Origin: an uncultured Verrucomicrobiota bacterium
GTDB lineage: Bacteria; Verrucomicrobiota; Kiritimatiellia; CAYTQP01; CAZOLK01
NCBI GenBank assembly: GCA_964580325.1
Contig: CAZOLK010000005.1
Coordinates: forward strand, 1-54,788
Length of the DNA: 54,788 nucleotides
Direction of reading: 5' to 3'
Position numbers and translations under genes: made by a program. A model generated the notes under the pieces. It was not told the DNA's origin, ran no database searches, and saw nothing but the letters and a program-made list of their open reading frames with translations. The stretch's first letter is position 1; each line of letters starts with the position of its first letter. Shown one piece after another: positions 4,829 through 49,400 of this stretch.

Positions 4829-5051
4829 AGCGAGGCATAGGAAGGCAATTCCACCCGTTATAATCTCCAGCGCTTATTCTTTTCCGCTCTAAGTGCCCTC
4901 ATAAAAAAAACATACCATTTCGAGGGCCAACGATCCATCCAGCGGCGTTGCTAAAAATCGAAATATTCCAATATTTCTGCGTTTTTGCGCCTTGCTGGGC
5001 TGGGCAACTTGGCTCCACATAAGGTCATGTTATTTTCCCGTGAACCCTAAG
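4829..5051 (+). repeat. Intergenic imperfect-palindrome repeat, copy A
   Basis: The segment 4897-5051 aligns almost base for base with 22390-22543. The AT core gaaatattccaatatttc lies at 4960-4977. The left unit (4829-4896) is degenerate. The right end overlaps the TAG (5047-5049) of the downstream minus-strand gene. Confidence 0.7.
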
Positions 5052-8000
5052 GAAGCTTGGCGCCAGTCCTATAAATTCTATATGTACCAACGTTGGTCAC
5101 AGTCAACTGTACCGCGGACCCATCAAATTTTCCTGGGACATTTAGACCATAGGGAATCCAGTTTGCGTTCAAAAGATTTGTGGTCCACCATACATCGTAC
5201 AGGCTGGTATTGGTGGACGGTGGACCGAATGTCATGATAAGTGTCTGCCCAACAGAAAGCTGCGCATTGGTTATCACATCGACCGGCACACTGTTGGAAA
5301 AGACTGGCGATGTACCCAGCGTATACTCATCCAGGTTGGAGTAGCCGTCGCCATCGCTATTCAGCGAAGCCTGCATATTGGTTTCGTTGCCGAAATACCT
5401 GCTCTCCCACCAATTGGGCATGCCATCCCCATCGCTGTCTTCCGCCGCCCCTTGGCCCAGGGTTTGTACCATTTGCGTATTCGAATGCTTGCTGACAAAG
5501 ATCGCATTGGTCGCCCTGACCCGGTAATAATACACCATCGCCGGGGTCAAGCCAGTGACCACCATGCTGGTAACATCGCCCACAGCCCGCCCCATGTAAC
5601 CACCGACAAATTCATTGGGGTAGTCGGAATTGTGCGTTTTGGGCGAGGCTTGACTGCCGGGTAAAGCCGACCACTCGCCGAAATCTGAATCCTGTGAGGC
5701 CTGGGTCACATCTGGATTGCGGTTCAAAGATTTATTCTGAAAGCTATTGGTAACAACAAGCAGGCAATCCACGCATTGCGTCGAAGCGTTGTAAAGCATC
5801 GCGCCCTCCGGACCGAATTGCGGCAACCCGTCCCAGGCGGACAATGGCGTAATAAACCATGTTGTCGTGAAGTCGGCATTGGTGTTGTCGGGATGTCCGC
5901 AAATCACGGATTCACCGGCTCCAAGCTGACCGGACAGGGTCCATTGCGTATTGCTATAGCCGCCGCCAATGGCCTTCACGCTCCAACCATCAAGCGATAC
6001 AGGGCTTTCACTGAGATTATACACCTCGATATAGCGATCGTAACTACTCGATATTGGAGCCAGTTCCGACAAAATTACGCCCTGCCCTGCCCCTCCGCCT
6101 TCACTGCCGCGAAAAGAACTGTCGCGAGCAACATCCAGAAGATAGCCGGCAGCATAGCCGACATCCTGCCAGTTGGCCCGGAATGAATTCGAAGCAATGG
6201 CATCGGCGGCATACGCCACTGGCACTGAAAAGACCGCGCCAGTGCCGGCTACCATGAAATCGAACGTGTAAATGGTGGGGTCGTTGTTGAACAGAGAGAT
6301 CGTGGCCATACGCTCGCCGGTCAGACGCGGATCAAACCCGATAACCAGGTTGGACGCGGTCATGGGCGCAACATGCGACGGCACGGACTCCACCGAGAAA
6401 TCGGCGGCGTGCTCGCCTGCGATATGGATGCCGGAAATGCTGAGCATATCGTCGCCAAAATTGGTGATCGCCAGTGTACGTGTGGAGAGGCCGGAATCCA
6501 GGTCATATGCGCCGAACTGGGTGCCGCGCGCCAGGTCCGGGGCCACATCCCCGTTCGGGATTTCGACGCCATTGACGCCGAGCACGTGCATCCGCGGTTG
6601 CCGTCTGAGCGTACGCACAGCCTGTGTATTGGAATTACCACTATACAGGCTGCCGCTATACGCACGCACCCGGTAATAGTATAGCGAGTTCTCGATCAAG
6701 CCGGTCACCATCTGGCTGGTGCTGTTGACCAGTAGATTGGAATACCCCGGCAGCATGGACAGAATCAAACCGCCCGCCTGGTCGATGCTCAAATCGTCCA
6801 GCCAGAGCTTCATGTCCTGTGCCAACGAGTATTTATAATACAAGCCCATGTGCGCCGTGGTAGTGTGATTCGTATCCGTAGCCGTACCTTGGGTGGCAAG
6901 ATTGTCAAAACCACCGTCGGCATCGATACGCAACGTCCATTCGCCGTTGGCGTTACGCATGACTTCAAAACCTGCCGCCCGGGACGTGCCAACAAGGCCT
7001 TCCCAGTTCAAACCGGAATCAATGAGCACCGTGGCAAAACCGGCATTGATCTCGTACAGTTTAACAGTGTCATCGGATTCATAGAAATTAACGCCTACGG
7101 CATACCCCTTGGCACTGCCGCCGCGGCCCATTTGCGCGGCAGGCTGATCGGCCATCAGGTAGAACGTCCAGTTATTGTTGCCTGAAGGAGCATAGCCATG
7201 GCGAACCTGGAAACGCCATATAACAGTCTGACCCAGATTCAAACCGGTCAGCGGCCTGGATACAGTGTCCGTTGAGGCATTGGTGCTGTTGTAAATATGA
7301 TGCAGCGAATAGGATCCGTTGATGGGGCTATCCGTGGAGGCGGCCCAGCGTCCCGGCGTGCTCTGCTCCCAGAGCGAAATGCTGCCGTTTTCAAAATCGT
7401 TGCTCATGAAGGAAGTTATACCGGCCGGCGTACCGAATTGCTGGTGGTCCGAAACATCCAGCCGGTAACTCACGGCCCCCGGCACGTTGCTCCAGTTGGC
7501 GGTAAAACCGGAAGCCGTCACCGGATCGGCGGGCAGCGCAACCGGCACGCCAAAACTGACTGTAATGTAATCGGTTTTGATCTCTGTATCTTCAGCAGAA
7601 AGCTGATCGCGAACATACAGACTCACGGTATAAACTCCGGAAGTGGCGTAGACATGCTGAGGGCTGACACTCGTGCTCGTGGAACCGTCGCCGAAGGTAT
7701 AGGTATGCTGGTATGGCGCCTGGCCGCCCGAAGTCAGATCCGTGAACTGCACGGTCAACGGCGCTGGACCACTGCTCGCATCAACACTGAAATTCGCATT
7801 CAGCGAAGGTGTGCCAAAGCTCTGACCCGCATTGATGCTGCCGTGCGAAGCAATGTTAGTGGCCCAAATGAAATTGTTATAAGTCGCTCCAGTTCCCACC
7901 AGTTGCAACGATTGCCCTACAGCCACGGGAGGTTCCGAAGCTTCGATGTCCACCGAATCCATGCCCATGGCCGGCCCATCTGCAGCCGTGAAGCTGCCCT

Positions 8001-8352
8001 CATAACTCAGGAACTGAATTACGGAGGTTCCGTTCCACACCAGGGCGATGCCGTCGGGATCGCCATTTTGAAGGCCGGTGAAGTCAAACCAAACCGCGCC
8101 GTACCCACTGCCTTCATCATTGATCAAACCGGTAAGGCTGACACGGTTATATTCAGAGCCGTCATTTCCGTTATAGCCGATCAATTCGTAACTGCTCAAA
8201 TCCGTGCCGGCCGTACCCGCAACTTCGACGCCTTCGTCTGCATCTCCGCCATCGTTATCGTAATGGAACTCATTGATCCACACTTCGCCAAAACAGAAAC
8301 TGCCCGATAGAACAAGGGCAATCAACATGAACATAGAGCCATTCTTTTTCAA
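5047..8352 (-). CDS. Large secreted surface protein (lamin-tail, PKD, Fn3-like and TSP3-like modules)
   Basis: The track ORF runs to 8367 (TTG). A second TTG at 8352 has GAGGAG 7 nt upstream and gives the signal peptide MKKNGSMFMLIALVLSGSFCFG. Modules seen: lamin-tail-like (WINEFHYDN..DEGVEV, and ILSELAP..YIEVYNLS); PKD (LTVQFTDLTSGG..YTFGDG..HVYATSGVYTVSL); Fn3-like (GFTANWSNVPGAVSYRLDVS, FRANWQDVGYAAGYLLDV); DSDGDGMPNWWE..SDGDGYSNLDEY. Confidence 0.85.
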   Translation of the reverse strand: MKKNGSMFMLIALVLSGSFCFGEVWINEFHYDNDGGDADEGVEVAGTAGTDLSSYELIGYNGNDGSEYNRVSLTGLINDEGSGYGAVWFDFTGLQNGDPDGIALVWNGTSVIQFLSYEGSFTAADGPAMGMDSVDIEASEPPVAVGQSLQLVGTGATYNNFIWATNIASHGSINAGQSFGTPSLNANFSVDASSGPAPLTVQFTDLTSGGQAPYQHTYTFGDGSTSTSVSPQHVYATSGVYTVSLYVRDQLSAEDTEIKTDYITVSFGVPVALPADPVTASGFTANWSNVPGAVSYRLDVSDHQQFGTPAGITSFMSNDFENGSISLWEQSTPGRWAASTDSPINGSYSLHHIYNSTNASTDTVSRPLTGLNLGQTVIWRFQVRHGYAPSGNNNWTFYLMADQPAAQMGRGGSAKGYAVGVNFYESDDTVKLYEINAGFATVLIDSGLNWEGLVGTSRAAGFEVMRNANGEWTLRIDADGGFDNLATQGTATDTNHTTTAHMGLYYKYSLAQDMKLWLDDLSIDQAGGLILSMLPGYSNLLVNSTSQMVTGLIENSLYYYRVRAYSGSLYSGNSNTQAVRTLRRQPRMHVLGVNGVEIPNGDVAPDLARGTQFGAYDLDSGLSTRTLAITNFGDDMLSISGIHIAGEHAADFSVESVPSHVAPMTASNLVIGFDPRLTGERMATISLFNNDPTIYTFDFMVAGTGAVFSVPVAYAADAIASNSFRANWQDVGYAAGYLLDVARDSSFRGSEGGGAGQGVILSELAPISSSYDRYIEVYNLSESPVSLDGWSVKAIGGGYSNTQWTLSGQLGAGESVICGHPDNTNADFTTTWFITPLSAWDGLPQFGPEGAMLYNASTQCVDCLLVVTNSFQNKSLNRNPDVTQASQDSDFGEWSALPGSQASPKTHNSDYPNEFVGGYMGRAVGDVTSMVVTGLTPAMVYYYRVRATNAIFVSKHSNTQMVQTLGQGAAEDSDGDGMPNWWESRYFGNETNMQASLNSDGDGYSNLDEYTLGTSPVFSNSVPVDVITNAQLSVGQTLIMTFGPPSTNTSLYDVWWTTNLLNANWIPYGLNVPGKFDGSAVQLTVTNVGTYRIYRTGAKLP

Positions 8353-8468
8353 GGTACTTCTCCTCAACTAACACCATGCAATCTGATTTTAAATTATCAA
8401 TTTTGAATTACCAAAACATTGTGAATGGCGAACACTACGCCAGCATTGTGCAGAGACCGTTTCCATTC

Positions 8469-22310: not shown

Positions 22311-22543
22311 TTGCGTCCCGCAACGAAGCCGCATGGGATGAATTGCCCCTCAATGGTGAAGTTATTTTTGCGCACACCCTTAGGACCCACAGAAAAACAA
22401 CATGCCATTTTGAGGGCCAGCTATCTCATCCAGCGGCGTTGCAAAAACTCGAAATATTCTAATATTCCTGCGTTTTTGTGCCTTTGCTGGGCAGGGCAAC
22501 TTGACTCCAAAAAATGTCATGTTATTTTCCCGTGAACCCTTAG
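22311..22543 (+). repeat. Intergenic imperfect-palindrome repeat, copy B (most complete copy)
   Basis: Three arm units: 22311-22384 (+), about 22385-22445 (inverted), and about 22470-22543 (+). The core gaaatattctaatattcc lies at 22451-22468. The right end overlaps the TAA (22540-22542) of the adjacent minus-strand gene. Confidence 0.75.
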
Positions 22544-23595
22544 CCCGTAAGTGTAGCGTTGAAACGCTGTAATCCCTTCATTCCCAACCTTTTGATAGCA
22601 CCATGAGCTGCGTTGAAAGCTTTCTTGTCAATGGTGGCATTGAAAAAGTCGATGGCCCAGGCGGAATCAAGCAATTTTGAGCCGAACAATTCGCCATACA
22701 GCTTGTTGATCTTATTGTAATATGATTTGCCAAGATCTTTGTAGCCAATAGACATGCCCGATGAGCTGGCAAAAACGCCTTTACCCATCTTCGAGTGCGA
22801 TTTCGGGTATTTCGAGTCATCGGGAGACATGTCAATGCTCTTTTTCTGGCCATAAGACATGCCAGAACCGCCGTGCATACCCATGGAGGGTGTATGGGTC
22901 CATGTCTGTGTATAGTCCAGATCCTGAATCATTCTCAGGTACATCAGCAGCTCGATTTCCTTGGCCAACTGTTTCTCGTTGACTTGCGAGGATTTTGGGG
23001 CTTTGGCGAATTTTGAAGAGGTCAACGTTGCAATCGCGGCATCGCGTTGAGCAGTGGTCAATTTTGAGTTGGCGAAAATATGACGGGCTGTATCCCGATA
23101 CTTCAAAAAACACTCGCCAACGAACTGGACCAGACTGGTGAGAGCATCCGTTTCCGTGGTCCATTTCTGCGTGGAGGGGAAATTACCCCTGGTTTCCTCA
23201 AAAAGCTTCTTAGTTTTGCCTTCCAGGATTTTACCGCCAGCATCCCACAAACCGCCGACAATAAAGTTGGCCACTTTATTGGAAGAAACGAAATGAGCGG
23301 CTGCAAAAGCCTGGTTCATATTGTTTTTGCAGATCACATCCAAGGTTTTCGCCACAGCCACGGCTTTCCAGGTGGTTTGTGCAAAAACATGGGTAAGCAC
23401 GCCGCCGGAGCAGATTGTCAAAGCCATCATGCACAATTCGGTTTTTTCGGCATCCAACTTTTTCTGCGCTTCGCCGGTTTCTTTGTAGTTGCTCAAGGCC
23501 TTGGCGAAAGCTCTTGCATATGGATAGGCATGATAGAGTTCCCACCGTGTTTTCATATCTACACTGTTGTCTAATACAGTAGTCAGTTCTGGCAT
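22540..23595 (-). CDS. Orphan hypothetical protein (351 aa)
   Basis: The track ORF starts at GTG 23631. The ATG at 23595 is preceded by GAGGAGGAG with an 8-nt spacer (MPELTTVLDNS...). No TM segment, signal peptide or motif I recognise. Confidence 0.6.
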   Translation of the reverse strand: MPELTTVLDNSVDMKTRWELYHAYPYARAFAKALSNYKETGEAQKKLDAEKTELCMMALTICSGGVLTHVFAQTTWKAVAVAKTLDVICKNNMNQAFAAAHFVSSNKVANFIVGGLWDAGGKILEGKTKKLFEETRGNFPSTQKWTTETDALTSLVQFVGECFLKYRDTARHIFANSKLTTAQRDAAIATLTSSKFAKAPKSSQVNEKQLAKEIELLMYLRMIQDLDYTQTWTHTPSMGMHGGSGMSYGQKKSIDMSPDDSKYPKSHSKMGKGVFASSSGMSIGYKDLGKSYYNKINKLYGELFGSKLLDSAWAIDFFNATIDKKAFNAAHGAIKRLGMKGLQRFNATLTG

Positions 23596-24030
23596 TTTGT
23601 GCTCCTCCTCATTTTCAAACATTATTTTCACTGTTCATTTATTTGTAAACTTCACAATATCAGTTTTCCCCAATATGAAGTGACAGCAGAGCCTGGCTTC
23701 ACAAACAAGACTCGCCCATCAGAAGATGGATCTTCACCCGCACCCCAGGGATTACATAATATTCAAAAATATCAATAATATAGCATCACAATATATCTAT
23801 TCCTCACCACATTGAAATAGTACCACGCAGCAAGGGCGTTGTCAAAATCTTGTTTGAAATACATGAATGATTTTGCCTCTTCCGGCGATTGCATTGATAG
23901 TCGCCGAGAACATTGGCTTCAACTCGTTTATTAGCAATATGTTGCGGCTCATGACCAGAGTGTTTTATTCAGGTTCAGGATCGCACATCCTGAGGCGACC
24001 AGGCTTGGAAGTGTCAACATGGCGCAGAAT

Positions 24031-31670: not shown

Positions 31671-34061
31671 ATGAAACTGGAACTTCAAGATTACGAATAT
31701 CTCAATAAGTTGCGCGAGAATCCATTCTCCACGATCTGGCTAGCGCGCCAGCTTTCCATAAATCGTTTTGTCGTGATCAAAATCATTGCTTGGGAAAACC
31801 TTCTGCCTCGTCAGGACATCGACGCTTTCTGCACCGATGTATGCACGGTTGCCAAACTTTCTCATAAACACCTGCTCAAAGTACTCGATGGCGGTGAAAT
31901 GCAGGGTAAGATTTACTACATAACAGAATACATCAAAGAGCACTCATTGAAAAAAGCACTTGGCGAGAAAGGGCGCATGAACGAAAAACCGGCTCTGAAA
32001 AGCTGCCGCGATATCGCCGAAGCACTAGATTATGCCATTCGTGAGTGCAACCTGCACCATGGCGGACTGGACAGCACAAACGTCATTTTCGATGAGCACG
32101 AGACCATAAAAGTGGCCGATTTCGCCATGTCCGGTCATATCACCGAAGTCATGCCCAACTTCATCTATCCCGACCCATCGACCAAAGCGCCGGATGGGCG
32201 CGCCGAAGTGTACAACCTGGGCGCCCTACTCTATTTCATGACGACAGGTATTGTGCCGTTTGGCGAATGCGAAGATAAGGACGTTCCCAAAGAACACCGG
32301 AAAGAACAATTGCCCGATCCCGTGGATCTGAATCCTGAGTTGTCGTTCCAAACAGCAACTCTGATCGAGAAAATGATGATCAAAGATGGAAATCGGTGCT
32401 ATCCTGACCTGACTACTCTCGCACACGATATCGATGCTGTGGTGACGGGGCGTTTTCCATGCCACGCGTGCGGCCTGGAGGAAGGCGCCAGCACTGTTGG
32501 GCGAGGCCGAAAACGACGCGAAGCCCAACTCGACGAACCGGCAGCCTTTGCGCCTCCGCCTCTGGCAGCACCTGTTGCGTTGCCTTCACAGCTTTCGCCT
32601 GTGCAACCCGAAGCTCAACCAGCCCCCCCGACCGGTATTTTAATCGGTGAAAAGCCGCCAATGCCAGCTCCTGTGCCGGAATCCCAACCCGGACCCATTC
32701 AACCAGAACCTTCATCCGGTATCCTGATCGGCGGCCCCCTTGTTAAACCCGTGGATCAGGGACAGGCAATACCCATGGCAAACCCGGTTCAGGAAGAAGC
32801 ACCAATGCCGCTTTTTGGTAAAAATGACTCTTCATCGGAATTCGACATCAAGGCCACGCCTGTTTTGAACCGCGAACCAACTCCTATTCAACGGTTGAAT
32901 GTGAATCCATGGGAAAAAGAAGAATCGCCTTTTATCAAACGAATCAATGCCCGTGAACCCGTGGCAAATCCACCCATGGCCCAACATGCTCCCGAAGCAG
33001 CGTCGGCGGAGCCTTTTGCAGCGTCTCCGTTCGCCTCTCCCGCTCAAGCCGCATCCCCCGAGCCGCCACTTGCTCAACCGATGCAAACCGCTCCTCCTTA
33101 TGCTCAGCCGGTGCCACAAGCTCAACCAGTATCATCACCATTTGCACCTCGGCCCCAACCTGCGCAACCACAACCGGCACAATTCTTTCCGCCGTATGCA
33201 CAACCCGCTCCGCCTGTCGCGCAAACCGCCCATCCTCCACTGCCCATAGCCCAACCGGTTCAACCATACGGCCAGCAACCCTACGGCCAGCAACCCTACG
33301 GCCAGCAACCCTACGGCCAACCCGGGCAAGCTTACGGCCAACCCATGCCCCTTACACAACCAGCGCAGCCAGCACCTGCATCTTCACCCGCCAAAGCACC
33401 CAAGAAATTGGTGTTATCCGCCAAAGGAGAAATTGACGAATTCAGGGAACGCAAACGCAAGCGCGCAAAAATCAAGAAAATGATCTACAAAACCATTTAC
33501 GCCCTTATCGTGATCGTGTTGGTATATGTCCTCATAAAAAACAAAGAAAAACTGCCAGGATTGATCCAGAAAGCAAAAAACTGGGTAATGAGCCATGACG
33601 ACACGGCCAAGCAAGGCATCCTCCGCAATGCCCGTGAGACCAAAGAAAGGTTAGCCAAAGAAAGGGACAAAGGCGGGGACAGAGGTTATAACGAAGATTC
33701 TATGATGGATGATCTGGATCGCTTTTCCAGACAAGCGTCCTCAAATCCTGATCGGCAGCCGGATCAATCGCAAAATCAGCCCAGACAAAGCATGCGTTGG
33801 GACAATTCCGATTATGTAAATGGCAAAAAGAAGTACAACGATGCCGTTGATCTCTTCAATAAAGCACGCACCCTTGGCGAACGGGAACGCAACCAGACGT
33901 ACGAACGCGCGGGTGAATTGGCTCGACAGGCCGGCGACCATTTCTCACGCTGCAAATCACAAGCACCATCGTATGTTTCGGTTTCGAAAATCGACCAATA
34001 TATGCGCACCGCATTTAAATTAGCCGAAGACTGCCGCCAGAGTCGACGACTCGTGCGTTGA
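31671..34061 (+). CDS. Membrane-anchored Ser/Thr-kinase-like protein (predicted pseudokinase) with Pro/Gln-rich linker
   Basis: The N-terminal ~270 aa are collinear with the Hanks kinase fold: VVIK, ITEYIKEHSL, KVADFA, APD..EVYNLGALLYFMTTGIVPF. The glycine loop is degenerate, and the catalytic loop reads HHGGLDSTN instead of HRDLKPxN. A ~290-aa P/Q/A-rich region follows, then one TM helix (IYALIVIVLVYVLI) and a ~190-aa C-terminal domain. Confidence 0.8.
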   Translation: MKLELQDYEYLNKLRENPFSTIWLARQLSINRFVVIKIIAWENLLPRQDIDAFCTDVCTVAKLSHKHLLKVLDGGEMQGKIYYITEYIKEHSLKKALGEKGRMNEKPALKSCRDIAEALDYAIRECNLHHGGLDSTNVIFDEHETIKVADFAMSGHITEVMPNFIYPDPSTKAPDGRAEVYNLGALLYFMTTGIVPFGECEDKDVPKEHRKEQLPDPVDLNPELSFQTATLIEKMMIKDGNRCYPDLTTLAHDIDAVVTGRFPCHACGLEEGASTVGRGRKRREAQLDEPAAFAPPPLAAPVALPSQLSPVQPEAQPAPPTGILIGEKPPMPAPVPESQPGPIQPEPSSGILIGGPLVKPVDQGQAIPMANPVQEEAPMPLFGKNDSSSEFDIKATPVLNREPTPIQRLNVNPWEKEESPFIKRINAREPVANPPMAQHAPEAASAEPFAASPFASPAQAASPEPPLAQPMQTAPPYAQPVPQAQPVSSPFAPRPQPAQPQPAQFFPPYAQPAPPVAQTAHPPLPIAQPVQPYGQQPYGQQPYGQQPYGQPGQAYGQPMPLTQPAQPAPASSPAKAPKKLVLSAKGEIDEFRERKRKRAKIKKMIYKTIYALIVIVLVYVLIKNKEKLPGLIQKAKNWVMSHDDTAKQGILRNARETKERLAKERDKGGDRGYNEDSMMDDLDRFSRQASSNPDRQPDQSQNQPRQSMRWDNSDYVNGKKKYNDAVDLFNKARTLGERERNQTYERAGELARQAGDHFSRCKSQAPSYVSVSKIDQYMRTAFKLAEDCRQSRRLVR
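33261..33344 (+). repeat. In-frame 15-bp tandem repeat (QPYGQ units) within the kinase-like gene
   Basis: cagcaaccctacggc occurs three times perfectly (33273-33317), flanked by degenerate copies. It encodes QPYGQQPYGQQPYGQQPYGQPGQAYGQP. Confidence 0.8.
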
Positions 34062-35233: not shown

Positions 35234-36505
35234 TTAGCCGGCAAGCGCTTGATCGATATCCATCAGAATATCGTCGATGTGCTCGAGTCCAATAGAGAGC
35301 CTGATCAATTCTGGTTTGATACATCCCAAAAGCTGCTGTTCAAGCGTCAATTGGGAATGGGTTGTGGAAGCGGGATGGATGGCCAGCGTCTTGGCATCGC
35401 CCACATTGGCAAGATGGGAAACGAGCTTAAGCCGATCAATGAATGCAGCACCTTTTTCCACACCGCCCTTGACGCCAAAAACAACCATGGCGCCAAAACC
35501 CTTATCCAACACCTTCGATGCAATGGCATGCGCGGGATCGTCAGACAGACCAGGATAGCGGACCCATTCGACTGCGGGATGCTGATCGAGGTGGCAAGCA
35601 ACAGCCATGGCATTTTCGCAATGACGCTGCATGCGCAAAGGCAATGTTTCAATGCCCTGCAAAAAAATCCAGGCATTATCAGGCGAAATACAGGCGCCCA
35701 AATTGCGCAGGGGCACCAACCGCATGCGCAAAATATAAGCCAGAGACGACAACTCGCCGAGATCGGATGCATAACGGATATCGTGATAGCTGGGATCCGG
35801 TTCCGACAACAGCGGAAATTTCCCACTGGTCCAGTCAAATTTACCCGAATCCACCACAATCCCGCCAATGCCCGCACCATGACCGCCAAGCCACTTGGTC
35901 AGTGAATGCACGACGATGTCGGCGCCATGCTCCATAGGCCGGCATAACCAGGGTGTGGCAAATGTATTGTCAACCACCAACGGCAATCCATGAGCATGCG
36001 CTACATCTGCCAATGCAGTCAGATCCACGCAATCCAAACCCGGATTACCGATAGTTTCGCAATAAACCAGTTTGGTCTTTTCGTTGATAGCTGCGGCAAT
36101 CTGATCAGAGGCGCGCGGGTCGACGAAACAAGCTCGAATACCCATCTGGGGCAAAATATCGTTGAATTGGGTATATGAACCACCATAGAGATTATTAGCG
36201 GAAACAAATTCGTCGCCAGTCTTGCATAGGTTGATAATGCTGTAAAAAATAGCACTCGTACCGGAAGCGAGCGCCAGAGCAGCCGCACCGCCTTCCAGAG
36301 CAGACATCCGCTTTTCCAGAATATCCTGGGTCGGATTCATCAAACGAGTATAAATATTACCCAATTCTTTCAAAGCGAATAAATCTGATGCATGTTGCGT
36401 ATTACGAAAAAGATACGCACTTGTTCGATAAACCGGGATACCGCGGGACATGGTCGAGGCATCCACCTCTTGGCCGGCATGAAGCGCTAAAGTTTCAAAT
36501 TTCAT
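35234..36505 (-). CDS. metY: O-acetylhomoserine aminocarboxypropyltransferase/sulfhydrylase (PLP-dependent)
   Basis: 423 aa with [22 protein letters not shown] and the PLP-lysine block [13 protein letters not shown]. It lies immediately upstream of metX. Confidence 0.9.
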
Positions 36506-36575
36506 GTCATTTATTCTTTACTTTTAAAAAAAAGAAGTTTACTATCACGCTCATCATTTGCAAGCCTTTTTTTTC

Positions 36576-36731
36576 GGGGTTCGCGCAGAAATAACTTCGC
36601 ATTTTGAGAAGTTAAGGCATTTTGCCGGCAAGGCGCAACACCACAGGAATATTTGGAATATTTCGAGTTGTTGCAACGAAGCAGATGGATGAACGTCGTA
36701 ACGTGAAGTAGTTTCTGCGCGGACCCTCAGG
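36576..36731 (-). repeat. Intergenic imperfect-palindrome repeat, copy C (inverted orientation, two arms)
   Basis: Arms gggttcgcgcagaaataacttc (36577-36598) and gaagtagtttctgcgcggaccc (36705-36726) are 19/22 complementary. The core ggaatatttggaatatttc lies at 36646-36664. The copy aligns to the reverse complement of copy B. Confidence 0.75.
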
Positions 36732-36842: not shown

Positions 36843-38735
36843 ATGAGTGAGAAATACGCAGACTTATTGCAAACTAAAATGAGCACAGCCAATTATCAGA
36901 AGCTGGTCGCTCTTGATAATAAAAAACTGTTTAACTTTATTGGCGAATATATCGAACTGTGCGAACCTGACACGGTATATATGTGTGATGACAGCGATGC
37001 TGACGCTGAATACATTCGTTTAAAAACACTGGAAAAAGGAGAAGAAACCCCGCTGGCCAAAGACGGGCAGACCATCCACTACGATGGGTATGGGGACCAG
37101 GCGCGCGACAAAGCAAACACCCGCTTTTTAGTCAGCCCGGAAGCCAGGGCTTCAATGGGCAACCTTAATTGTATTGATTTTGAAGAAGGCATGCAGGAAA
37201 TCCGCGATATCGCACGCGGCATCATGAAAGGCAAAGAAGCCATCGTCAAACTTTTCTGTGAGTGTCCGACCAACAGTATTTTTTCGATCGGATGCGCCCA
37301 GATTACGGATTCTTACTACGTGGCTCATTCAGAAGACATCCTGTACCGCCGTGGTTACGAGCAATTCCAACAGATGAAGGATAAAGACAGCTTCTTCCGC
37401 TTTTGCCACAGCGCCGGTCCTCTGGATGAGCGCGGTTGTACAATCAACCTGGAAAAACGCAGAATCTATCAGGATGTGGAAAATAAGATCGTTTTTTCGA
37501 TGAACGCACAATATGCCGGAAATTCCGTCGGTCTTAAAAAACATTCCATGCGTTTGGCCATCAAGAAGTCCAGTACCGAAGGCTGGCTCTGCGAGCATAT
37601 GTTTATCATGGGCTGCCAAAATAAAGAGAAAAATCGGGTCACCTATTTTTGCGGCGCCTTTCCTTCAGCTTGTGGCAAAACCGCAACAGCCATGATTCCT
37701 GGAGAAACATTGATTGGTGACGATATCGCCTATTTCAAAAACGTGGATTGCGAATTCCGCGCAGCCAATGTCGAGCGCGGTATTTTCGGTATTATCCGCG
37801 ACGTAAATGAAAAAGACGATCCAGTGATTTATCGCACCCTGATGTCATCAGGCAACGAGATGATCTTCTCTAATGTGCTGACCGGACCGGACAAGAATCC
37901 GTACTGGCAGGGAATGGGTATTGAAACGCCCAAAGCGGGTATCAACCACTCTGGTTCATGGCATGAAAACGACAAGGACGACCAGGGCGCCTTAATTCCA
38001 TTGTCTCATGGCAATGCGCGCTACACCATCCGTCTAGCCTACCTGGAAAACCTGGACCCCGAATGGGACAACAAAAACGGCGTAGTCGTGGGAGGCCTGC
38101 TGTACGGCGGTCGCGATTCGCACACATGCGTACCGGTTGAAGAATCGTTTGGCTGGGAAGACGGCATTATTATGAAAGCATGTACGCTCGAATCCGAGAC
38201 GACCGCGGCGACGCTGGGTCAAGAGGGCGTGCTCAAACCCCAGCCCATGGCTAACCTGGACTTCATCAGTTACCCCATCGGGCAGTATATTCAGAATAAT
38301 TTGGACTTCACCAAAAACATGAAAAAAGCCACGCCCGTTTTCGCCACAAACTACTTTCTCAAGAACGAGCAAGGCGAGTATTGCACCAGCAAACTGGCTA
38401 AAAAAGTCTGGTTGCACTGGGCCGAGGCACGCGTTCATGGTGAACTGGAAGCCTATGTAACACCCACGGGGCTGATTCCCAAGTACGAAGACCTGACGCC
38501 TCTGTTTGAAAAATTGCTTGGTGAAGATTATACCCATGAAGATTACGAGTACCAGTTCACGTTCCGTTGCGATGCCTGGCTGGCCAAGCTAGATCGTTGC
38601 ATCAAATACTTCAAGGAAAACATTCCTGACTGTCCTGAATTGGTCTTTAGCAAATGGGAAGAAGCACGCCGGAAAATCGAAGAAGCCAAGTCGAAATATG
38701 GCGAATTGATCGGCCCTGGAAAATATCAGGGTTGA
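36843..38735 (+). CDS. pckG: Phosphoenolpyruvate carboxykinase (GTP)
   Basis: 630 aa with the kinase-1a P-loop FPSACGKT and typical GTP-PEPCK length and blocks (IGDDIAYF, GNARYT). GGGAG lies upstream of the ATG. Confidence 0.9.
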   Translation: MSEKYADLLQTKMSTANYQKLVALDNKKLFNFIGEYIELCEPDTVYMCDDSDADAEYIRLKTLEKGEETPLAKDGQTIHYDGYGDQARDKANTRFLVSPEARASMGNLNCIDFEEGMQEIRDIARGIMKGKEAIVKLFCECPTNSIFSIGCAQITDSYYVAHSEDILYRRGYEQFQQMKDKDSFFRFCHSAGPLDERGCTINLEKRRIYQDVENKIVFSMNAQYAGNSVGLKKHSMRLAIKKSSTEGWLCEHMFIMGCQNKEKNRVTYFCGAFPSACGKTATAMIPGETLIGDDIAYFKNVDCEFRAANVERGIFGIIRDVNEKDDPVIYRTLMSSGNEMIFSNVLTGPDKNPYWQGMGIETPKAGINHSGSWHENDKDDQGALIPLSHGNARYTIRLAYLENLDPEWDNKNGVVVGGLLYGGRDSHTCVPVEESFGWEDGIIMKACTLESETTAATLGQEGVLKPQPMANLDFISYPIGQYIQNNLDFTKNMKKATPVFATNYFLKNEQGEYCTSKLAKKVWLHWAEARVHGELEAYVTPTGLIPKYEDLTPLFEKLLGEDYTHEDYEYQFTFRCDAWLAKLDRCIKYFKENIPDCPELVFSKWEEARRKIEEAKSKYGELIGPGKYQG

Positions 38736-39091: not shown

Positions 39092-39445
39092 TTATCGTTT
39101 CAGGAAGTATAACTCCAGAGAAGGAATTCCTTTTCCTTCGGGTTCAAAGCGCAACACATCCCAAACCAGGTTTTCATTTTCATCGGAAACAATTTCCGCT
39201 TTAGGAAGCCTGTTCCAAACACCATGCGATGAATAAGGCGTTTCAAGGTCAATATCCAAAGAGCGAGAAGCTTCGATATAATAACTTATATACGTGAGTT
39301 GGCGTTGCTGCTGAGCCGCAGCTTCAAGCCGCAACAACGAAATCACTGCGATGCCGATTACCGTTAGGGTCAAACAACAGATGGCCAAAGAGAGTAAAAC
39401 CTCAACCAAGGTGAATCCATCATTCCGCGCTGGATATATCCGCAT
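39092..39445 (-). CDS. Minor pseudopilin (prepilin-type N-terminal cleavage/methylation domain)
   Basis: The ATG at 39445 gives MRIYPARNDG|FTLVEVLLSLAICCLTL.., a canonical prepilin leader and hydrophobic helix. 117 aa. It overlaps the gspG end by 26 nt. Confidence 0.7.
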   Translation of the reverse strand: MRIYPARNDGFTLVEVLLSLAICCLTLTVIGIAVISLLRLEAAAQQQRQLTYISYYIEASRSLDIDLETPYSSHGVWNRLPKAEIVSDENENLVWDVLRFEPEGKGIPSLELYFLKR

Positions 39446-39941
39446 TATAGCCAGTTCCGCCAGGTTCACCATCACTCCCATAACTGAGCACTTCAAAGGC
39501 AAGCCCTTCCCGACCGGGAACACGATAAATATATGGGTTGCCCCATGGATCCAAAGGCAGTTTCAGTTTTTCCATGTAACCGCCTTCTGGATAATTACGC
39601 GGAACCGGCGGGATGGTCGGCTTCCGGACCAGGGCTTCCAAACCTTGCTCCATGGTCGGAATACGCCCTTCAGCAATCATATATTGCTTGATCAAATCCG
39701 AATACGCATGGATTTGAATGCGTGCCTTATTGACTTTAGTGGTTTTGATATGATGCATGACATTGAATCCAACCACCCCGACCAAGGCCATGATAATCAT
39801 CATGACAATCAATATTTCCGCAAGTGTAAAACCGCTTTTCGAGCCAAAGGCGTGCGCAAAAAGAAGTTCGCCATTTGTGGAGGTAAGTCGCCCAGCCGGC
39901 AAGGCGCGAATGTGCAGGAATATTGAAATATTTCGAAACAT
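39420..39941 (-). CDS. gspG: Type II secretion major pseudopilin GspG-like (start uncertain)
   Basis: G|FTLAEILIVMMIIMALVGV.., DPWGNPYIYRVPGREG and VLSYGSDGEPGGTGYNADI are classic GspG blocks. The only in-frame starts (39941 and 40022) give 41- or 68-aa leaders that lie inside repeat copy D. Confidence 0.8.
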   Translation of the reverse strand: MFRNISIFLHIRALPAGRLTSTNGELLFAHAFGSKSGFTLAEILIVMMIIMALVGVVGFNVMHHIKTTKVNKARIQIHAYSDLIKQYMIAEGRIPTMEQGLEALVRKPTIPPVPRNYPEGGYMEKLKLPLDPWGNPYIYRVPGREGLAFEVLSYGSDGEPGGTGYNADISSAE

Positions 39942-40007
39942 TCGCAACGAAGCCGGATGGGATGAATTGCCCCTCAATGGTAAATTTATTTTTTCGCACG
40001 GCCTAAG
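39844..40007 (-). repeat. Intergenic imperfect-palindrome repeat, copy D (inverted orientation), overlapping the gspG 5' end
   Basis: The core ggaatattgaaatatttc lies at 39917-39934. The right arm gcaacgaagccggatgggatgaattgcccctcaatggtaaatttattttttcgcacggcctaag nearly matches the copy B left arm. The left arm ends about 6 nt from the prepilin cleavage-site codon. Confidence 0.7.
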
Positions 40008-40033
40008 TATTTTCGCATTCATATTTCGCAGGC

Positions 40034-42923: not shown

Positions 42924-45329
42924 TTATTCAAACAATAGCAGGTAAATGGCATTTACCCTGTTTGTGCCCTGAAAAGGCTCTCGGCCCACCATGGTAACAA
43001 TATTTGAAAAATTATTATGCAATTTGTCAAACTTTTCCTCAAACTCCCAATTACCTGATTTCACCTGGGTCCGGTTGAACAACAAGGCACCTTCATGGTT
43101 GCTGATTCGCCCCACGACCGTCAATTCAACCAACTCATCATCAGATAAACTTGGTGCGCTCCAGCGCAAATAAGGGGTATGAAGATAAGCTTGACCCATG
43201 GAAGCGGAATACTCAAGAACATGAAAATCCTCAGGCAACCGTTCCTGGATATAAATGTTTGTAGCGGTATTCATCCTGTTTATCACCAACAAAATATAAG
43301 CCAGAATACCATTGGTGTTCACCACGGATTTACTGGCGCGTAAACTTTGAATGGTGAGATCCACTTCACTCATGCATGCATCACCGATAGAATCGCCATC
43401 ACCATCTTCCTGCCCAGGATTATAGACATAAACGCAATTATCGGTTACACTTGGAATGCCATCGCTATCATGATCGATTGCTGTTGAGATGACAGCCTGA
43501 TTGTTATACGACCTGTAATCGCTATCATCGGTAATAACCTCAGCCATGTTGGTCACAACAAAACAACAAAAAGGAGTTGCTCTAGCGTCAATAGTAACCG
43601 TGACAGGCGTACTGGTCAATACAGAGGTGATGGAACACCTAAGAACACCTTGGGAGTAACAACACATTCCCCGTGAACAAGCCGCAGATATAAATTCCAT
43701 TCCTTCGGGTAAAGAGTCGACAATTACCACGTCGTTCGCCATATCTGGACCATGGTTGGTGACGAAAAGCGTATATGATTGCACGGCATCGTTCGATAAA
43801 AGAGGTGATGATGCGCTTGTCGTCAAACTCAGGTCGACCTTGGTATCCGTCACTTCATTACTTATGGCCAAAGTATTATCGGCAAAGTAAGCATCGAGAG
43901 CCATGGATGTCACCTCAACTTTGCTGGTGAACACTCCCAACTGAGCGTTTTGAAGTCTTACCTGTATGTCGACTTTTAAATGACCGTGCGGAGGCAAAGC
44001 CTCATGAAAACACTCAAGCATATTGCCTTTATACGAATCGCACGAATCGAATTCTGATGTGACGGAAAGAATCTGAAATCCAGTGGGCATGATGTTTTTT
44101 ATCTGGACCCAGGAAGCAGTTTCCAGACTCTTGTTGGTCACGGTCAATGTAATATTGAACTCGTCACTGGCCTTGACATAATAGTCGGACATGGAATAAG
44201 ACACAGCCAGATCGGCGTAGACCATTTCTATGGCCGACAGCCATTTATTGGCCTGAGCGTCCTTAGTTGGATCAAGGCCCAGCGCCAGGTATCGGCCATC
44301 ATGTGACCAGCGCACGGCATGGACATCCGTGATCGAATCCAATCCCGCCATTTTGGTCAACGTCCTGCCAATGCGGTCGTAACGATAAATAATGCATTCC
44401 TGCATGGTATTGAATGGCTCATCTTGGGTATAAACAACAGCCAGCAGATCAGGAAAAGGAGATGCATACGGTATCCAGTGAAGCTCCATAGCCGATGAGC
44501 CGGACATCTCTTCACAGCGCAACTCCAACCGTTCAACGGTGTTATCCCAATAGTAAATTTGCAGAGGCGCCATAAAAGGACCTTCTTCACGGGCAACTGC
44601 AACTTGATCGTAACGATCTGACCAATCCACATCATTGACCTGCAAGTTGAACCTATCGTCAAAAACCATATGCAGATTAGTGCCGGCCACCTGCAGCACA
44701 GCAAGGTTCTGCAATCCGTAACGATACAAACCCACAGCAAAAACATCGCCATTGGGCCGCCAACTAAGGGCGCCCGACGATACATAATTCACTCCGGTCA
44801 AATCATAAGTGCCGCGCAATGCGGGATTCCGATCTAAATCATAGTATCTGAATATATCGGATGTGTCTGCAGTTCCAACCACAGCACGCATATTCGGATA
44901 GATGTCACGCCAGGCTATGGCTGTTGCCTTACATGTTACATTGGTTAAAACTGACAACGTGCGCTCCGAATCATCAAATTGAAATAAAGTCATCGCACCA
45001 CTAGCCAGCGAAGATTGGGCAACGAGCAGGTATTCATTGGATCCCGAATGCCATTGAACGTCATGACAGGTCTGGGGCAGATTTAAATCCATGGAATCCA
45101 ACAGAACCAACATATCATCTGTTTTGATGATTTGTAGCTCATGCGAACTGGCAGCCGAATCCAATCCAATGGCGATGTATTGATCATACCAGCTCCAGTC
45201 AATGGCAACCACTTCACCACCAGTATGATACGTACGAACCCTACTCTGAGCCAACACAATATCGGCAACCTGTAGGACTGACAAAATACAGGAAGCAAAA
45301 AGCAACCATTTCATTCTGCGTTCAGACAT
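42924..45329 (-). CDS. Secreted beta-propeller / DUF11-repeat / TSP3 protein
   Basis: 801 aa with the signal peptide MKWLLFASCILSVLQVADIVLA. The N-terminal ~370 aa carry WD/propeller-like repeats. DUF11-type repeats are present (LTVTNKS..IMPTGFQILS; LFVTNHGPDMANDVVIVDSLPEGMEFIS). There is a canonical TSP type-3 motif, DSDGIPSVTDNCVYVYNPGQEDGDGDSIGDAC. Confidence 0.8.
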   Translation of the reverse strand: MSERRMKWLLFASCILSVLQVADIVLAQSRVRTYHTGGEVVAIDWSWYDQYIAIGLDSAASSHELQIIKTDDMLVLLDSMDLNLPQTCHDVQWHSGSNEYLLVAQSSLASGAMTLFQFDDSERTLSVLTNVTCKATAIAWRDIYPNMRAVVGTADTSDIFRYYDLDRNPALRGTYDLTGVNYVSSGALSWRPNGDVFAVGLYRYGLQNLAVLQVAGTNLHMVFDDRFNLQVNDVDWSDRYDQVAVAREEGPFMAPLQIYYWDNTVERLELRCEEMSGSSAMELHWIPYASPFPDLLAVVYTQDEPFNTMQECIIYRYDRIGRTLTKMAGLDSITDVHAVRWSHDGRYLALGLDPTKDAQANKWLSAIEMVYADLAVSYSMSDYYVKASDEFNITLTVTNKSLETASWVQIKNIMPTGFQILSVTSEFDSCDSYKGNMLECFHEALPPHGHLKVDIQVRLQNAQLGVFTSKVEVTSMALDAYFADNTLAISNEVTDTKVDLSLTTSASSPLLSNDAVQSYTLFVTNHGPDMANDVVIVDSLPEGMEFISAACSRGMCCYSQGVLRCSITSVLTSTPVTVTIDARATPFCCFVVTNMAEVITDDSDYRSYNNQAVISTAIDHDSDGIPSVTDNCVYVYNPGQEDGDGDSIGDACMSEVDLTIQSLRASKSVVNTNGILAYILLVINRMNTATNIYIQERLPEDFHVLEYSASMGQAYLHTPYLRWSAPSLSDDELVELTVVGRISNHEGALLFNRTQVKSGNWEFEEKFDKLHNNFSNIVTMVGREPFQGTNRVNAIYLLLFE

Positions 45330-46417: not shown

Positions 46418-49400
46418 TTATAGGCCGCTTTCAAGAATAATTCGATAGTAACGTGGAGTTTCACCAGAATAATCAGCAAACTGTTCCTTAAAGTTAGCTG
46501 CAGTCAAACGGTACAGGAATGACCACTGTGGATTCAGCAAGCTGGTGGTATACTCGATCCGATAACGCAATCCCGGGATTGCATCAAACTGAATCAAAGC
46601 CGGCATGCCTGGAATCACATCGATATTCGGTTTCTGATCCAAGTTCAAATTACCGAGGTTGCCCTCAGGCGTGGATGGCGTGATGGAAAAGTCCCACGTC
46701 TCCCACCAACTTCCCACACGATAGTTACCAACAGGCAATAAACCGAAATGGAAGGAATCCTGACTGTCAGTTACAGTTTGACCCAGAATCGCCCCGAGAT
46801 AATTCTGACCGAACAGTGCTACTTCCGTCTGCGACGATATATTCGTGAACGTACCAGATATCTCACCGCCTTGAACGATAGCAACATCATCTATATACCA
46901 ACCACCAGCCGTACCTTCGTTATCAGAGTTTAAAATGAAGCGGAAGAAAACATTGGTTTCATTAGCCAATATATTCAACGGTACAATCATCCTGCGCCAT
47001 TTGCCATGGGTGTTGTAATTGTTGTTACGTTGGGGAACAACCGTAATTATCGGCAATGCCTGCGCACCCGTGCCACGAATACGTTGCCACACATCAGCCT
47101 GCGATCGAGGTCGGATCGCGTCCACCCAAATCGTATCGTTGGCATCGGCCAAGTCAACCCATTCATGGAAGATCAGATAGTATTGTGAATTGTAAGTATT
47201 CGCGGTTGAATTTTCTGATGGTATGTTGAGATTGATAAGGGGCGTAAGCAATTCCATTCTTGCGTTATTTGGATAGGTCCCATCAAGATCCGTTCCATAA
47301 CAAAAACGTCCGCTATATGCATAGGTCGGAATTGCGTTTGAGTCAAGTGAAATGGATGGATGTGGAACGCCTAAACGCCACTCATCCTCCAAAGTATTCG
47401 GATTCTCTCCACCAGCCCGATGATACCACAGCTCATGTTGCTCCGTCATTAAAGCCTGTACACCCAGCATATTCAATGTTGAATAGCTGTAATATACTTG
47501 ATCGAAAGAATCGTGATACCACTCAACCGGCAAACCGTTGTAACTCGCCCAATCTCCTTCCTCGTGGCGACAGGTTTCAAAGTTGGCAACTGAATTACGA
47601 GCAACGAACGACGATGTAGGTACAGGTCCAATCCTTTTCGCGGCAAAAGGCACGGTTTCCAGAACTTTGTCCGGTTCTACATTCCTGTTAATGCTAGGAT
47701 TTCGACCAGCGGGCATTCCGCCCAATTCGTGCTCGACCCCGTCGTCTACCAGATCGAAATCGGTATCTTTTCCAGTAGGTAATGCGCCGGCAAGGCCGCC
47801 AAAGAGGAATATGCTCGATATTGGTCCTCGTTTGATAGTGGGTTCCGGCCATTTCACCATGAGAGCATTTGGAGCAAACGTCATTGTAGAATAGGCTCGT
47901 GGTGAAGGTGCATTTTGATATTGGCCATGCGGATACATGAGAACCCATTTTGAATTAAACGTATCGAAGCACCATGTATCGTTGAAGTAGGTGTTGCCAT
48001 CCGTTCCGCCATATAAGATAACCCAACTGCTATCAAGGAAATACCTGAAATCTGTACCGTCGGGTGTGCCATCGTAATTTGAACGGTTGTAATCATTGGC
48101 CCCCCAATAGACCATGGATGCACCACCTCGTGGCTGCGGCCGCTCCGGGTTGAAGAATGCTACTATTTTGCTCCAGTTCTGTTCCGCCATGGAATATTGC
48201 CACAGATCGTTCAGAGGTTTATGCGATTCATCAAAACCACCAAACATAAGAACGCGACCGTTCAAACTATCATAGGTCATACTATGCGCATAACGAGCGG
48301 GTGGTCTTGTTATTGTATTTATCAGTTCAAACGTAACATTATTTGGGTTGGGTAAGGGGTCTTCTTCATTCCAAGTCACGTTACCTTCCCAAGTATCGTT
48401 CATAATGTAATTTCCGTTGATACCGCCAAATAAAACCATTTTGGCGTCGCCAGCGTCTCTGATTTCAGACGTCGGTGGTATGGCGACAAGCCCATAACTT
48501 TTACGGCTGAACGCAGTGAAACTAGCTGTAGCACCGACCGTTGTTGTTGAGTTTGAGCCCGTACCTACGCTAGTAGTTATAAGAGAGGCTATATACCCTG
48601 AATACAACATAGCGTCGTAATTATAAGCAGGACGATATGCTACGCCAAGAACGGTACCATTTGGTGATATTTCATAGTCCGTGGTTGCATTGGTAGCTAC
48701 AAAAATGAAACCGATCTCATTGCCAATGGTCCAATTAGGATGATTTATAATATTCACGAACTCCGTTGTGATGTCTAGTGACAAGTTGTCTGGCGTTGTA
48801 TTGTCAACAGTAAATGAAACCGGGCCAGCAGTGAACCAGCCTGCCAAGCGCGCCGATGGTTCTGTTGAGTCGGTTGCTGATGAATAGTTTGTCCAAGAGA
48901 AACCATCACCAGGATGAATCTCAAGATACAAATCTGTATCAACAGGTACAGATGGTTTTCGCCCAATGGATATAATGAGTTGTACGTTGGCAATCTCTTC
49001 ACAAACACTATTGAATGCAGTGTCTGTAAAGTTCATAGCCGCCAATCCAGTAGTAGGCCGCGGAACAACGATCGTATCTTCACCAACCTTCTTTTCGATA
49101 AATACTGTTCCAGCACCGACAATGCAAAGAGGTGGTCTTTCGTTCACCACATTAAGGGTGGGAACGCCATTTGTGGCAAAATCTCTGTACTCTGTAACGC
49201 CAATGGCATTCAATTCTATGCCCAATCGCGATTCAGCAAGAGACAGGAGATCATCCTGTGATTTGTAGAAGGGACCAAATGTGTTGTAAGCATGCTTAGC
49301 AGTCCAACCGCCATGCATATACATCCAATCTACACTACCGCTGTTTAACCATGGACGCCACTTTGGGGTGCCCATATATATTTCCGAGTAACAGTAATTT

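Follow-up and report, generated by a model that had tools for sequence, protein, structure and literature searches.

A dispersed palindromic repeat of probable MITE type, with a conserved hairpin tip and a one-strand fold, in a Kiritimatiellota-like genome and in Desulfobacterota

The 54,788-nt contig CAZOLK010000005.1, referred to in its entirety as the window and numbered along its forward strand, carries four copies (A to D) of a dispersed, non-coding, insertion-prone palindromic element with short flanking repeats; together with its relatives, the element forms a superfamily which spans Desulfobacterota and the Kiritimatiellota-like genome of the window. The conserved part is a central tip module, and the outer arms covary, so that a hairpin of about 70 bp is kept. 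Two features stand out as unusual, and both are well supported: it is the centre of the palindrome with its internal loops, rather than ends bound by a transposase, which is conserved across phyla, and the fold is selected on one strand. Neither of these points, nor the interruption of a gene by copy D, was part of an earlier first-pass annotation of the window. Our preferred reading, which we hold to be the probable one while leaving real room for doubt, is that of a non-autonomous miniature transposable element with inverted repeats (MITE), moved in trans, an undescribed family of the familiar ERIC/Correia-like kind. The family offers a tractable system in which to ask if selection on long-hairpin bacterial repeats acts on RNA, on single-stranded DNA (ssDNA) or on neither, and which enzyme moves them.

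Four copies of one element

The first-pass annotation had described four copies of a repeat, and all four were read directly in the sequence at about the coordinates it gave (Table 1). The extents it proposed, 160 to 230 bp, were right as to the loci, and the bounds were refined to about 155-158 bp for A, B, C and D, with a separate remnant beside B; the element is thus an imperfect palindrome of roughly 155 bp (155-160 bp) without coding capacity. A core pattern, TCGAAATATTYY(N)AATATTYCTG (also written TCGAAATATT-N2-3-AATATTYCTG), has exactly four matches in the window, two per strand, and gave 0 matches in 100 shuffles of the same sequence.

Similarity confined to an 18-nt core had been named beforehand as the outcome that would speak against a family; in self-BLAST comparisons the matches span 114-165 nt, and similarity over the whole element thus removes that objection. 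A and B share 86% identity over 165 nt (E 8e-44), and so are less alike than the near identity first ascribed to them; A and D are 74% identical over 137 nt in inverted orientation (E 5e-18), C and D 74% over 114 nt, and B and C 67% over 163 nt, again inverted. The two arms are inverted copies of each other, as had been noticed (in C, 36577-36603 and 36700-36726 are 81% complementary over 27 nt), and the ends pair in every copy as terminal inverted repeats, for example GGGTTCGCGCAG...CTGCGCGGACCC in C.

A third arm had been proposed to the left of both A and B. It is present at B, where the unit 22319-22383 carries the 3'-arm motif CGCAACGAAGCC and is 89% identical, in direct orientation, to the 3' arm of D (39943-40007), a match that the annotation had also seen; at A the corresponding stretch (4829-4896) aligns no better than shuffled sequence (z <=1.7). 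The half copy beside B is truncated exactly at a CGCAACG motif, just under the connecting stem of the hairpin. An open reading frame (ORF) of 74 aa at 22311-22535 exists only at B, and no ORF is common to the copies, both as first described.

Relatives in Desulfobacterota and metagenomes

Scans with the exact pattern located the core in 19 stretches of genomes and 118 of metagenomes. Of 141 instances, 80 have it at the tip of a long hairpin (120-190 nt), and the remaining instances are chance matches, such as a coding site in Marinimicrobia, or lie at contig ends. In the Marinimicrobia contigs (L001, L006, L010, L068 and L103) the same 23-nt core word occurs at one near-identical locus with no hairpin around it; the core pattern alone is therefore not diagnostic.

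About 100 related copies, hairpins of 140-190 nt with the core at the tip, were found outside the window, in Desulfobacterota metagenome-assembled genomes (MAGs), in metagenome contigs and on a plasmid of Desulfosarcina sp. BuS5, with a local density of up to 3 copies per 5-14 kb. The named genome hosts with hairpins are labelled Desulfobacterales, Desulfobacteraceae, Deltaproteobacteria or Ca. Adiutrix; more than 30 contigs come from a single metagenome sample, Ga0268262, and the elements on them group with those of the Ca. Adiutrix MAG. The hairpins split into subfamilies which differ in arm and end sequences, and the copies of the window cluster with one metagenome contig (L129).

BLAST of plasmids returned an unannotated relative at 100053-100197 of the BuS5 plasmid NZ_CP087953.1 (L141:8000-8145), 72% identical; a Desulfobacterales-type copy yielded no match in plasmids. 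The reading of a plasmid-borne element was rejected, the BuS5 plasmid being the only one found to bear a copy. This plasmid is 108 kb long, has conjugation genes and holds a single copy, which belongs to the window-type subfamily in a phylum other than that of the window's host, an arrangement compatible with horizontal spread of the family.

Two further observations concern related subfamilies. At L032:2536-2740 (= L136:2606-2810), a copy carries a hairpin-capable insert of about 55 nt nested in its tip, with the outer arms intact (62 bits with the covariance model R1 described below). The termite-gut/Ca. Adiutrix family (L007, L015 and the Ga0268262 contigs) has a conserved body of 131 nt, TGATTAATGAGG...GACCATTAATCA, and about 12 more conserved nucleotides, TTAAGGAAGCGC, on the 5' side of the favoured strand; their 3' partner is gone in most copies, which indicates a one-sided truncation that has propagated.

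A conserved tip within covarying arms

Covariation was examined in an alignment of 22 non-redundant elements, drawn from outside both the window and the termite-gut family, with a consensus hairpin of 58 pairs. Paired cells made up 87.6% of those observed, against 73.3% after shuffling and 31-53% when the partners were slid; 41 of the 58 pairs are altered on both sides, and the arms of the subfamilies differ in sequence yet stay paired. Within the window-type family (six sequences), 20 of the 58 pairs are compensated. Eight apical pairs are nearly invariant in the 22-element set, as is expected of a set chosen by the core pattern.

A covariance model, R1, was built from the same alignment and applied to the window with filters off. 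Exactly four matches were returned, each on a single strand and spanning model positions 1-147, and nothing else in the window scored above 14.1 bits (Table 1). The model also recovered the left-out termite-gut family at 54-90 bits, the BuS5 plasmid copy at 40.5 bits, and extra copies without an exact core; R1 is thus a means of finding the family, on the correct strand, in Kiritimatiellota-like and in Desulfobacterota sequence. In the copies without the core, the apical helix shows compensatory changes (GGAAUACU/AGUAUUUC, GGCAUAC/GUAUGUC and GGAAUAUC/GAUAUUUC), and since these copies were not selected by the pattern, the tip is a conserved helix and not merely a conserved word.

By inspection, the main subfamilies, that of the window included, share an A/U-rich apical helix of 8 bp (GGAAUAUU/AAUAUUUC) with a G.U pair and a free loop of 2-3 nt, a GCA/GA internal loop below it, and, further down, an asymmetric loop whose 5' side reads (A/U)AGGC and whose 3' side reads AACG; this loop is less clear in two small subfamilies. 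The connecting stem is 10 bp shorter in the window family.

The core is also an 18-19-bp inverted repeat of two AATATT hexamers, and it could on that account be a double-stranded site for a dimeric DNA-binding or nucleoid protein, with half-sites GRAATATT and AATATTYC and with the palindrome aiding cruciform formation or bending; the parallel would be with the sites for integration host factor (IHF) at the centre of Correia and E. coli RIB/RIP elements, and Correia elements do have central protein-binding sites (PMC10969869). The spacer between the half-sites, however, varies both in length (2 or 3 nt) and in sequence, and the copies found by the model show compensatory rather than conservative half-site changes, with both of which a duplex site fits poorly; nor is an IHF consensus (WATCAANNNNTTR) conserved across subfamilies, judged by eye, and the strand asymmetry described in the next section would be meaningless for a duplex. 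We regard such a site as a very improbable explanation of the tip.

One strand carries the fold

When the two strands were folded independently (RNA minimum free energy), the strand reading CAGGAATATT...AATATTTCGA was the more stable in 76 of 80 elements, by a mean of 14 kcal/mol; DNA energy parameters gave a preference in the same direction, and R1 scores about 90 bits higher on this favoured strand. In the window it is the minus strand for A and B and the plus strand for C and D. For copy B the minus strand reaches -65.3 kcal/mol (z -4.5) and the plus strand -42.7 (z -1.6); for copy C the plus strand reaches -62.1 kcal/mol (z -5.6) and the minus strand -49.1; copy D reaches -73.7 kcal/mol (z -6.7) on plus, and copy A folds weakly on both strands (z about -1 to -1.6). 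The proposal that every copy could form a hairpin of about 150 nt needs the correction that the fold depends on the strand.

A strand-neutral comparison, in which the 5' arm was set against the reverse complement of the 3' arm in 11 subfamily consensuses or copies, pointed the same way: on the favoured strand, 104 arm mismatches are purine-purine and 13 pyrimidine-pyrimidine, the excess being present in 11/11 sequences, and G.U outnumbers A.C by 55 to 35. Orientation relative to the neighbouring genes is evenly divided (34 same, 34 opposite), and a tie to the transcription of neighbours found no support; a tie to the replication strand found none either, as both orientations occur in the window, over the whole of which the GC skew stays negative.

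Among the 31 copies of the termite-gut family, rare variants at Watson-Crick pairs show no bias (G.U 20 vs A.C 23), but the consensus keeps the asymmetry, at -78.4 vs -63.1 kcal/mol. Asymmetric consensuses with unbiased rare variants suggest that the one-strand fold was selected during multiplication or in source copies. The single-stranded fold, as a transcript or as ssDNA, thus probably matters for propagation or for master copies, and not at each resident copy.

This bears on the idea that the hairpin is a structured RNA of use to the host, for instance a stabiliser or terminator in a 3' untranslated region (UTR) or intergenic region, an RNase III substrate or a protein decoy, and that mobility belongs only to its history. 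Wide covariation, a conserved apical G.U and purine-rich internal loops are typical of functional RNAs; A and B each follow a stop codon directly, in sense orientation to the upstream gene, a 3'-UTR position; convergent gene pairs are over-represented, accounting for 17 of 52 classified sites; and there are precedents in Correia elements with RNase III, ERIC with RNase E, and the compensatory changes of bcr1 (PMC10969869, PMC3184786). Yet orientation is random, so that transcription would give the poorly folding strand for half of the copies, and within the window D is antisense to both of its neighbours and C lies between divergent genes, 35234-36505(-) (Cys/Met pyridoxal phosphate enzyme) and 36843-38735(+) (phosphoenolpyruvate carboxykinase, PEPCK). 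Rare variants in the young termite-gut family are not skewed to G.U, A is already degenerate, and no promoter-like or terminator-like site was found within C or D. A purely host-serving RNA fits poorly with random orientation and neutral decay of copies, and we judge it decidedly unlikely.

Separately, a CsrA-type GGA pair, a K-turn, a Xer/dif-like core and an RP4-like nic site (ATCCTG/C, the slash marking the nick) were sought by eye and rejected along with the IHF consensus; none was conserved across subfamilies or fitted the favoured strand.

Insertions at stop codons and in a pseudopilin leader

The triplets bordering A and B are one trace of insertion (Table 1). A pure palindrome would read TTA...TAA across its borders, and the matching triplets of A and of B are therefore direct repeats, as a 3-bp target duplication predicts; the two triplets of D agree in part, and those of C do not match. 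In the related subfamilies the elements are flanked by TA/TA, which is missing in several copies.

The copies had been described as strictly intergenic, which the sequence contradicts at three of them, since D lies within leader codons of gspG, and at A and B there is overlap with the stop codon of a neighbouring gene. The TAA stop of the ORF 22540-23631(-) is itself the flanking triplet of B at 22540-22542, and the TAG stop (5047-5049) of the ORF 5047-8367(-), which encodes a PKD/LTD surface protein, overlaps the flank of A. As these stop codons coincide with TWA flanks, TAA and TAG seem to be tolerated, or even preferred, as landing sites. The half copy beside B is a 3' arm in the opposite orientation to B and ends at the very TTA where B starts, which places the full copy at the flank of an older, truncated one; the one shared TTA suggests either repeated use of the target or insertion into an earlier duplication.

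Copy D is the clearest case of insertion. The gspG-like gene 39420-40022(-), for the major pseudopilin of type II secretion, is open through one frame of the element and reads as a 200-aa ORF with a 54-aa N-terminal extension, in place of a 146-aa protein. In-silico deletion of 39846-40003 (158 nt = 155 + 3) joins ATG CGA AAA TAC TTA to GGC TCG AAA AGC GGT TTT, and the product of 146 aa, MRKYLGSKSG/FTLAEIL... (the slash marking the prepilin cleavage site), matches the GspG equivalog TIGR01710 from the first model position at 130.7 bits (cut-off 88.85). Because the excision restores a canonical GspG leader, we conclude that D landed in codon 5 of the pseudopilin leader peptide. The G/F cleavage site is intact in the extended protein, so that processing might still take place.

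Natural insertions at stop codons and in a pseudopilin leader show how the element reshapes gene ends. For annotation, the family is a nuisance which breaks assemblies and misleads gene calling, as in the spurious 74-aa ORF at B and the extended gspG at D.

Table 1. Copies of the element and the remnant in the window (forward-strand coordinates).
Feature	Position	Strand	Core	R1 score (bits)	Flanking triplets	Remarks
Copy A	4893-5047	-	4958-4979	29.1 on minus	TAA (plus strand) at 4890-4892 and 5048-5050; direct TTA/TTA on the element strand	most degenerate copy
Remnant beside B	22319-22379	+				3' arm of a plus-oriented copy; tip and 5' arm gone
Copy B	22383-22539	-	22449-22470	45.6 on minus vs 14 on plus	TTA (plus strand) at 22380-22382 and 22540-22542; direct TAA/TAA on the element strand	full element
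Copy C	36574-36731 (about)	+	36644-36666	48.4 on plus	TCG / TCA (degenerate)	
Copy D	39849-40003	+	39915-39936	50.4 on plus (E 7e-10)	AAA (degenerate) at 39846-39848; TAA at 40004-40006	

How the element may move

We propose that, in the genome of the window, the element would insert at T-W-A triplets and duplicate the triplet in doing so. As the element codes for nothing, the transposase that mobilises it must come from elsewhere, and would be encoded at another place in the genome. The G-A/G termini, together with flanks of 2-3 bp (TA or TWA), would suit an enzyme of the DDE type, from IS5 (IS427/IS1031-like) or from IS630/Tc1; we take these termini and flanks to resemble the ISfinder listings for the IS5 subgroups IS427 and IS1031 and for IS630/Tc1. 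By analogy with Correia and ERIC, copies transcribed along with a neighbouring gene would become long RNA hairpins at gene ends, as might be the case for A and B, and a copy may disrupt or extend a gene, in the manner of D in gspG.

Several points weigh against this proposal. No autonomous parent with the same ends was detected when eight subfamily ends were compared by BLAST with the window and the loci of its relatives (about 0.9 Mb, a weak test). Cut-and-paste transposition of double-stranded DNA by a DDE enzyme explains neither a strand-specific fold nor a conserved centre with variable ends, both of which would be better accounted for by an enzyme or process reading one strand. In the window, a 3-bp duplication is supported by two clean copies, with mismatched flanks at C, and the TA of the related subfamilies, being self-complementary, is indistinguishable from the last bases of an inverted repeat. 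The structures used for counting pairs were taken from the favoured strand, which inflates the G.U count made on them, though not the independent folding or the strand-neutral arm comparison. The lack of promoter-like and terminator-like sites in C and D, given above, belongs on the same side.

An alternative is that the family is mobile by way of a strand-specific ssDNA or RNA intermediate, with an enzyme that reads the tip and the internal loops, so that the paired ends are a by-product of the hairpin. Parallels exist in RAYT acting on REP/REPIN, in IS200/IS605 TnpA acting on end hairpins, and in the reverse transcriptase that recognises the stem-loop of short and long interspersed nuclear elements (SINE/LINE). 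Nearly every element, in each of the subfamilies, folds in a strand-specific way, the tip and loops are kept across phyla while the ends vary, and the consensus is asymmetric while individual copies drift without bias, as if the fold were tested at each round of copying; many termite-gut copies are also missing the outer 12 nt from just one side, and a DDE-type parent was not found in the 0.9 Mb searched. On the other hand, the direct 3-bp flanks of A and B and the 155 + 3 excision at D fit the staggered-cut insertion of a DDE enzyme. Insertion by IS200/IS605 or RAYT-type enzymes produces no target duplication. Both orientations are found within one replichore-like GC-skew domain, which is not the pattern of elements that favour the lagging-strand template; local REP-like palindromes are missing from the arms, and a candidate enzyme was not seen near the copies. 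An intermediate of this kind keeps its place in the weighing because an ordinary MITE explains neither the conserved centre with variable ends nor the strand-specific fold; we consider it unlikely.

A wider formulation, to which we give a tentative and still minor share of credence, is that of a hairpin replicator spread across at least two phyla and copied through one strand, RNA or ssDNA, by an enzyme that recognises the apical helix and the two purine-rich internal loops, or else of a new and widespread structured non-coding RNA motif riding on a MITE. If true, it would represent a bacterial counterpart of REPIN/RAYT or SINE/LINE recognition, with a conserved tip, free ends and duplications of 2-3 bp.

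Comparison with described repeats

The view that this was an unrecognised hairpin family of the ERIC, Correia or MITE type held up against every collection consulted. Searches of Rfam 15 with the window and seven loci returned a single tRNA at the gathering threshold, and in E-value mode only chance matches to miRNA and snoRNA families, far below threshold. A viral origin found no support, as the core had no match in IMG/VR and blastn found none in phage records. In the searchable literature, neither keywords (Desulfobacterota/Adiutrix palindromic repeats, BuS5 repeats) nor the core string led to a description of the family. E. coli genomes are expected to carry ERIC, REP/BIME and RIB/RIP repeats; copy D had no match at E <=0.01 in 5,426 complete E. 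coli genomes (blastn, word size 11), and identity with ERIC, REP, BIME or RIB was rejected on that ground.

The closest families in architecture are ERIC/IRU, Correia and bcr1. ERIC/IRU (about 127 bp) resembles the window element as an imperfect palindrome in the range of about 130-160 bp, non-coding, near gene ends and in either orientation. A conserved central inverted repeat is said to have been described by Hulton and colleagues in 1991 as the hallmark of ERIC. ERIC folds as an RNA hairpin with an orientation-dependent effect that involves RNase E (PMC10969869). It differs in having no sequence match to the present family, whose hosts are Kiritimatiellota-like and Desulfobacterota, whose window copies show TWA-flanked insertion, and whose apical helix and two internal loops are common across phyla.

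Correia elements (NEMIS/CREE) of Neisseria are MITEs of about 100-157 bp with TA flanks, a full-length hairpin and an IHF site in the centre; their transcripts form hairpins cut by RNase III, and the element inserts into or alters genes (PMC10969869, PMC3184786). They are confined to one genus and have conserved ends, whereas the ends of the present family differ by subfamily and the tip is conserved; the Correia terminal repeat, TATAGTGGATTAA..., is absent here, an IHF consensus was not seen by eye, and C and D have no promoter-like sites. A partial likeness of GGCGTTGC...CGCCTTG to what we take to be the Correia interior could not be confirmed and was not used.

The bcr1 element of the Bacillus cereus group (about 155 bp) is dispersed, has short direct repeats and is transcribed, with compensatory changes that keep the RNA structure and with stability decayed in some copies, and it is viewed as a special class of mobile sequence (PMC3184786). 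It is cruciform-like with two stem-loops, has 5-bp direct repeats and occurs in Firmicutes only, in contrast to the single long hairpin and 2-3-bp flanks reported here. Chunjie, a MITE found in Geobacter uraniireducens, from the former Deltaproteobacteria, has very stable predicted RNA hairpins and some copies that overlap genes; it measures 178-235 bp and is A+T-rich, with terminal repeats of 21 bp and direct repeats of 9 bp (PMC3184786), as against about 150 bp and 2-3-bp flanks for the present family, and it was set apart by description only. Compared with MITEs in general, the element is typical in being short (under about 300 bp), non-coding, dispersed (four copies and one remnant in 55 kb) and bounded by terminal inverted repeats; a related autonomous insertion sequence with the same ends was not found, the comparison of the eight subfamily ends with the window and the loci of its relatives, a weak test, having given no pair of ends that encloses a transposase.

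Palindromic, of similar size, multi-copy and mostly extragenic, the repeat might finally be taken for a by-product of another class, namely REPIN/RAYT doublets, integron attC sites or a CRISPR-like array. REPINs are extragenic hairpin doublets of about 100 bp, likewise non-autonomous and copied by a single-strand-reading enzyme encoded elsewhere. Their REP ends are conserved, each forming a short palindrome, and the spacer between them varies (bioRxiv 10.1101/2021.07.10.451892); the present pattern of conservation is the reverse, with a conserved centre and variable ends, and local hairpins in the arms of A-D do not exceed those of shuffled sequence, one case excepted. Putative flanking duplications are present, and no RAYT gene was seen. 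attC sites form cassette arrays of one orientation and are conserved at the base of the hairpin, whereas here 3-17 kb separate the copies, which occur among housekeeping genes in either orientation and have the tip as their conserved part; the irregular spacing argues against a CRISPR-like array. We give this class of explanation almost no credence.

Genomic context of the window

The genes of the window encode a sulfatase, a GH116 protein, an arginase, ABC transporters, PEPCK, an LptD-like protein, pseudopilins and big PKD/DUF11/TSP3 surface proteins; neither a transposase nor a Y1/HUH gene is among them. Copies A-D are surrounded by genes of housekeeping type, with no transposase close by, and the genes between neighbouring copies look housekeeping as well, their translations having been judged by inspection. 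For the PEPCK, the closest organism-named match is Kiritimatiella glycovorans (74%), and the remaining named matches are Kiritimatiellia and Lentisphaerales MAGs; the host probably belongs to Kiritimatiellota. The contig was itself absent from the genome and metagenome collections, where only a 3-kb Logan contig bears the same PEPCK together with copy C; an empty orthologous site for this copy was not found in K. glycovorans or in a related MAG, whose PEPCK loci are non-syntenic and hold no copies.

Other repeats in the window lie within coding sequence. At 33261-33319, inside a Ser/Thr protein kinase ORF (31671-34061, plus strand), a 15-nt unit, CAACCCTACGGCCAG, is repeated in tandem 3-4 times with 97-100% identity; one reading frame, which may or may not be that of the ORF, would give a short Q-P-Y-G-Q peptide repeat. 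On the minus strand, a 2,784-aa ORF (46418-54772) contains many diverged copies of an acidic 25-50-nt repeat (direct-repeat families D1-D5, D14 and D18), and adjoins an 801-aa DUF11 protein (42924-45329, minus strand) with a weak, sub-threshold TSP_3 match; the two may form a large surface-protein cluster.

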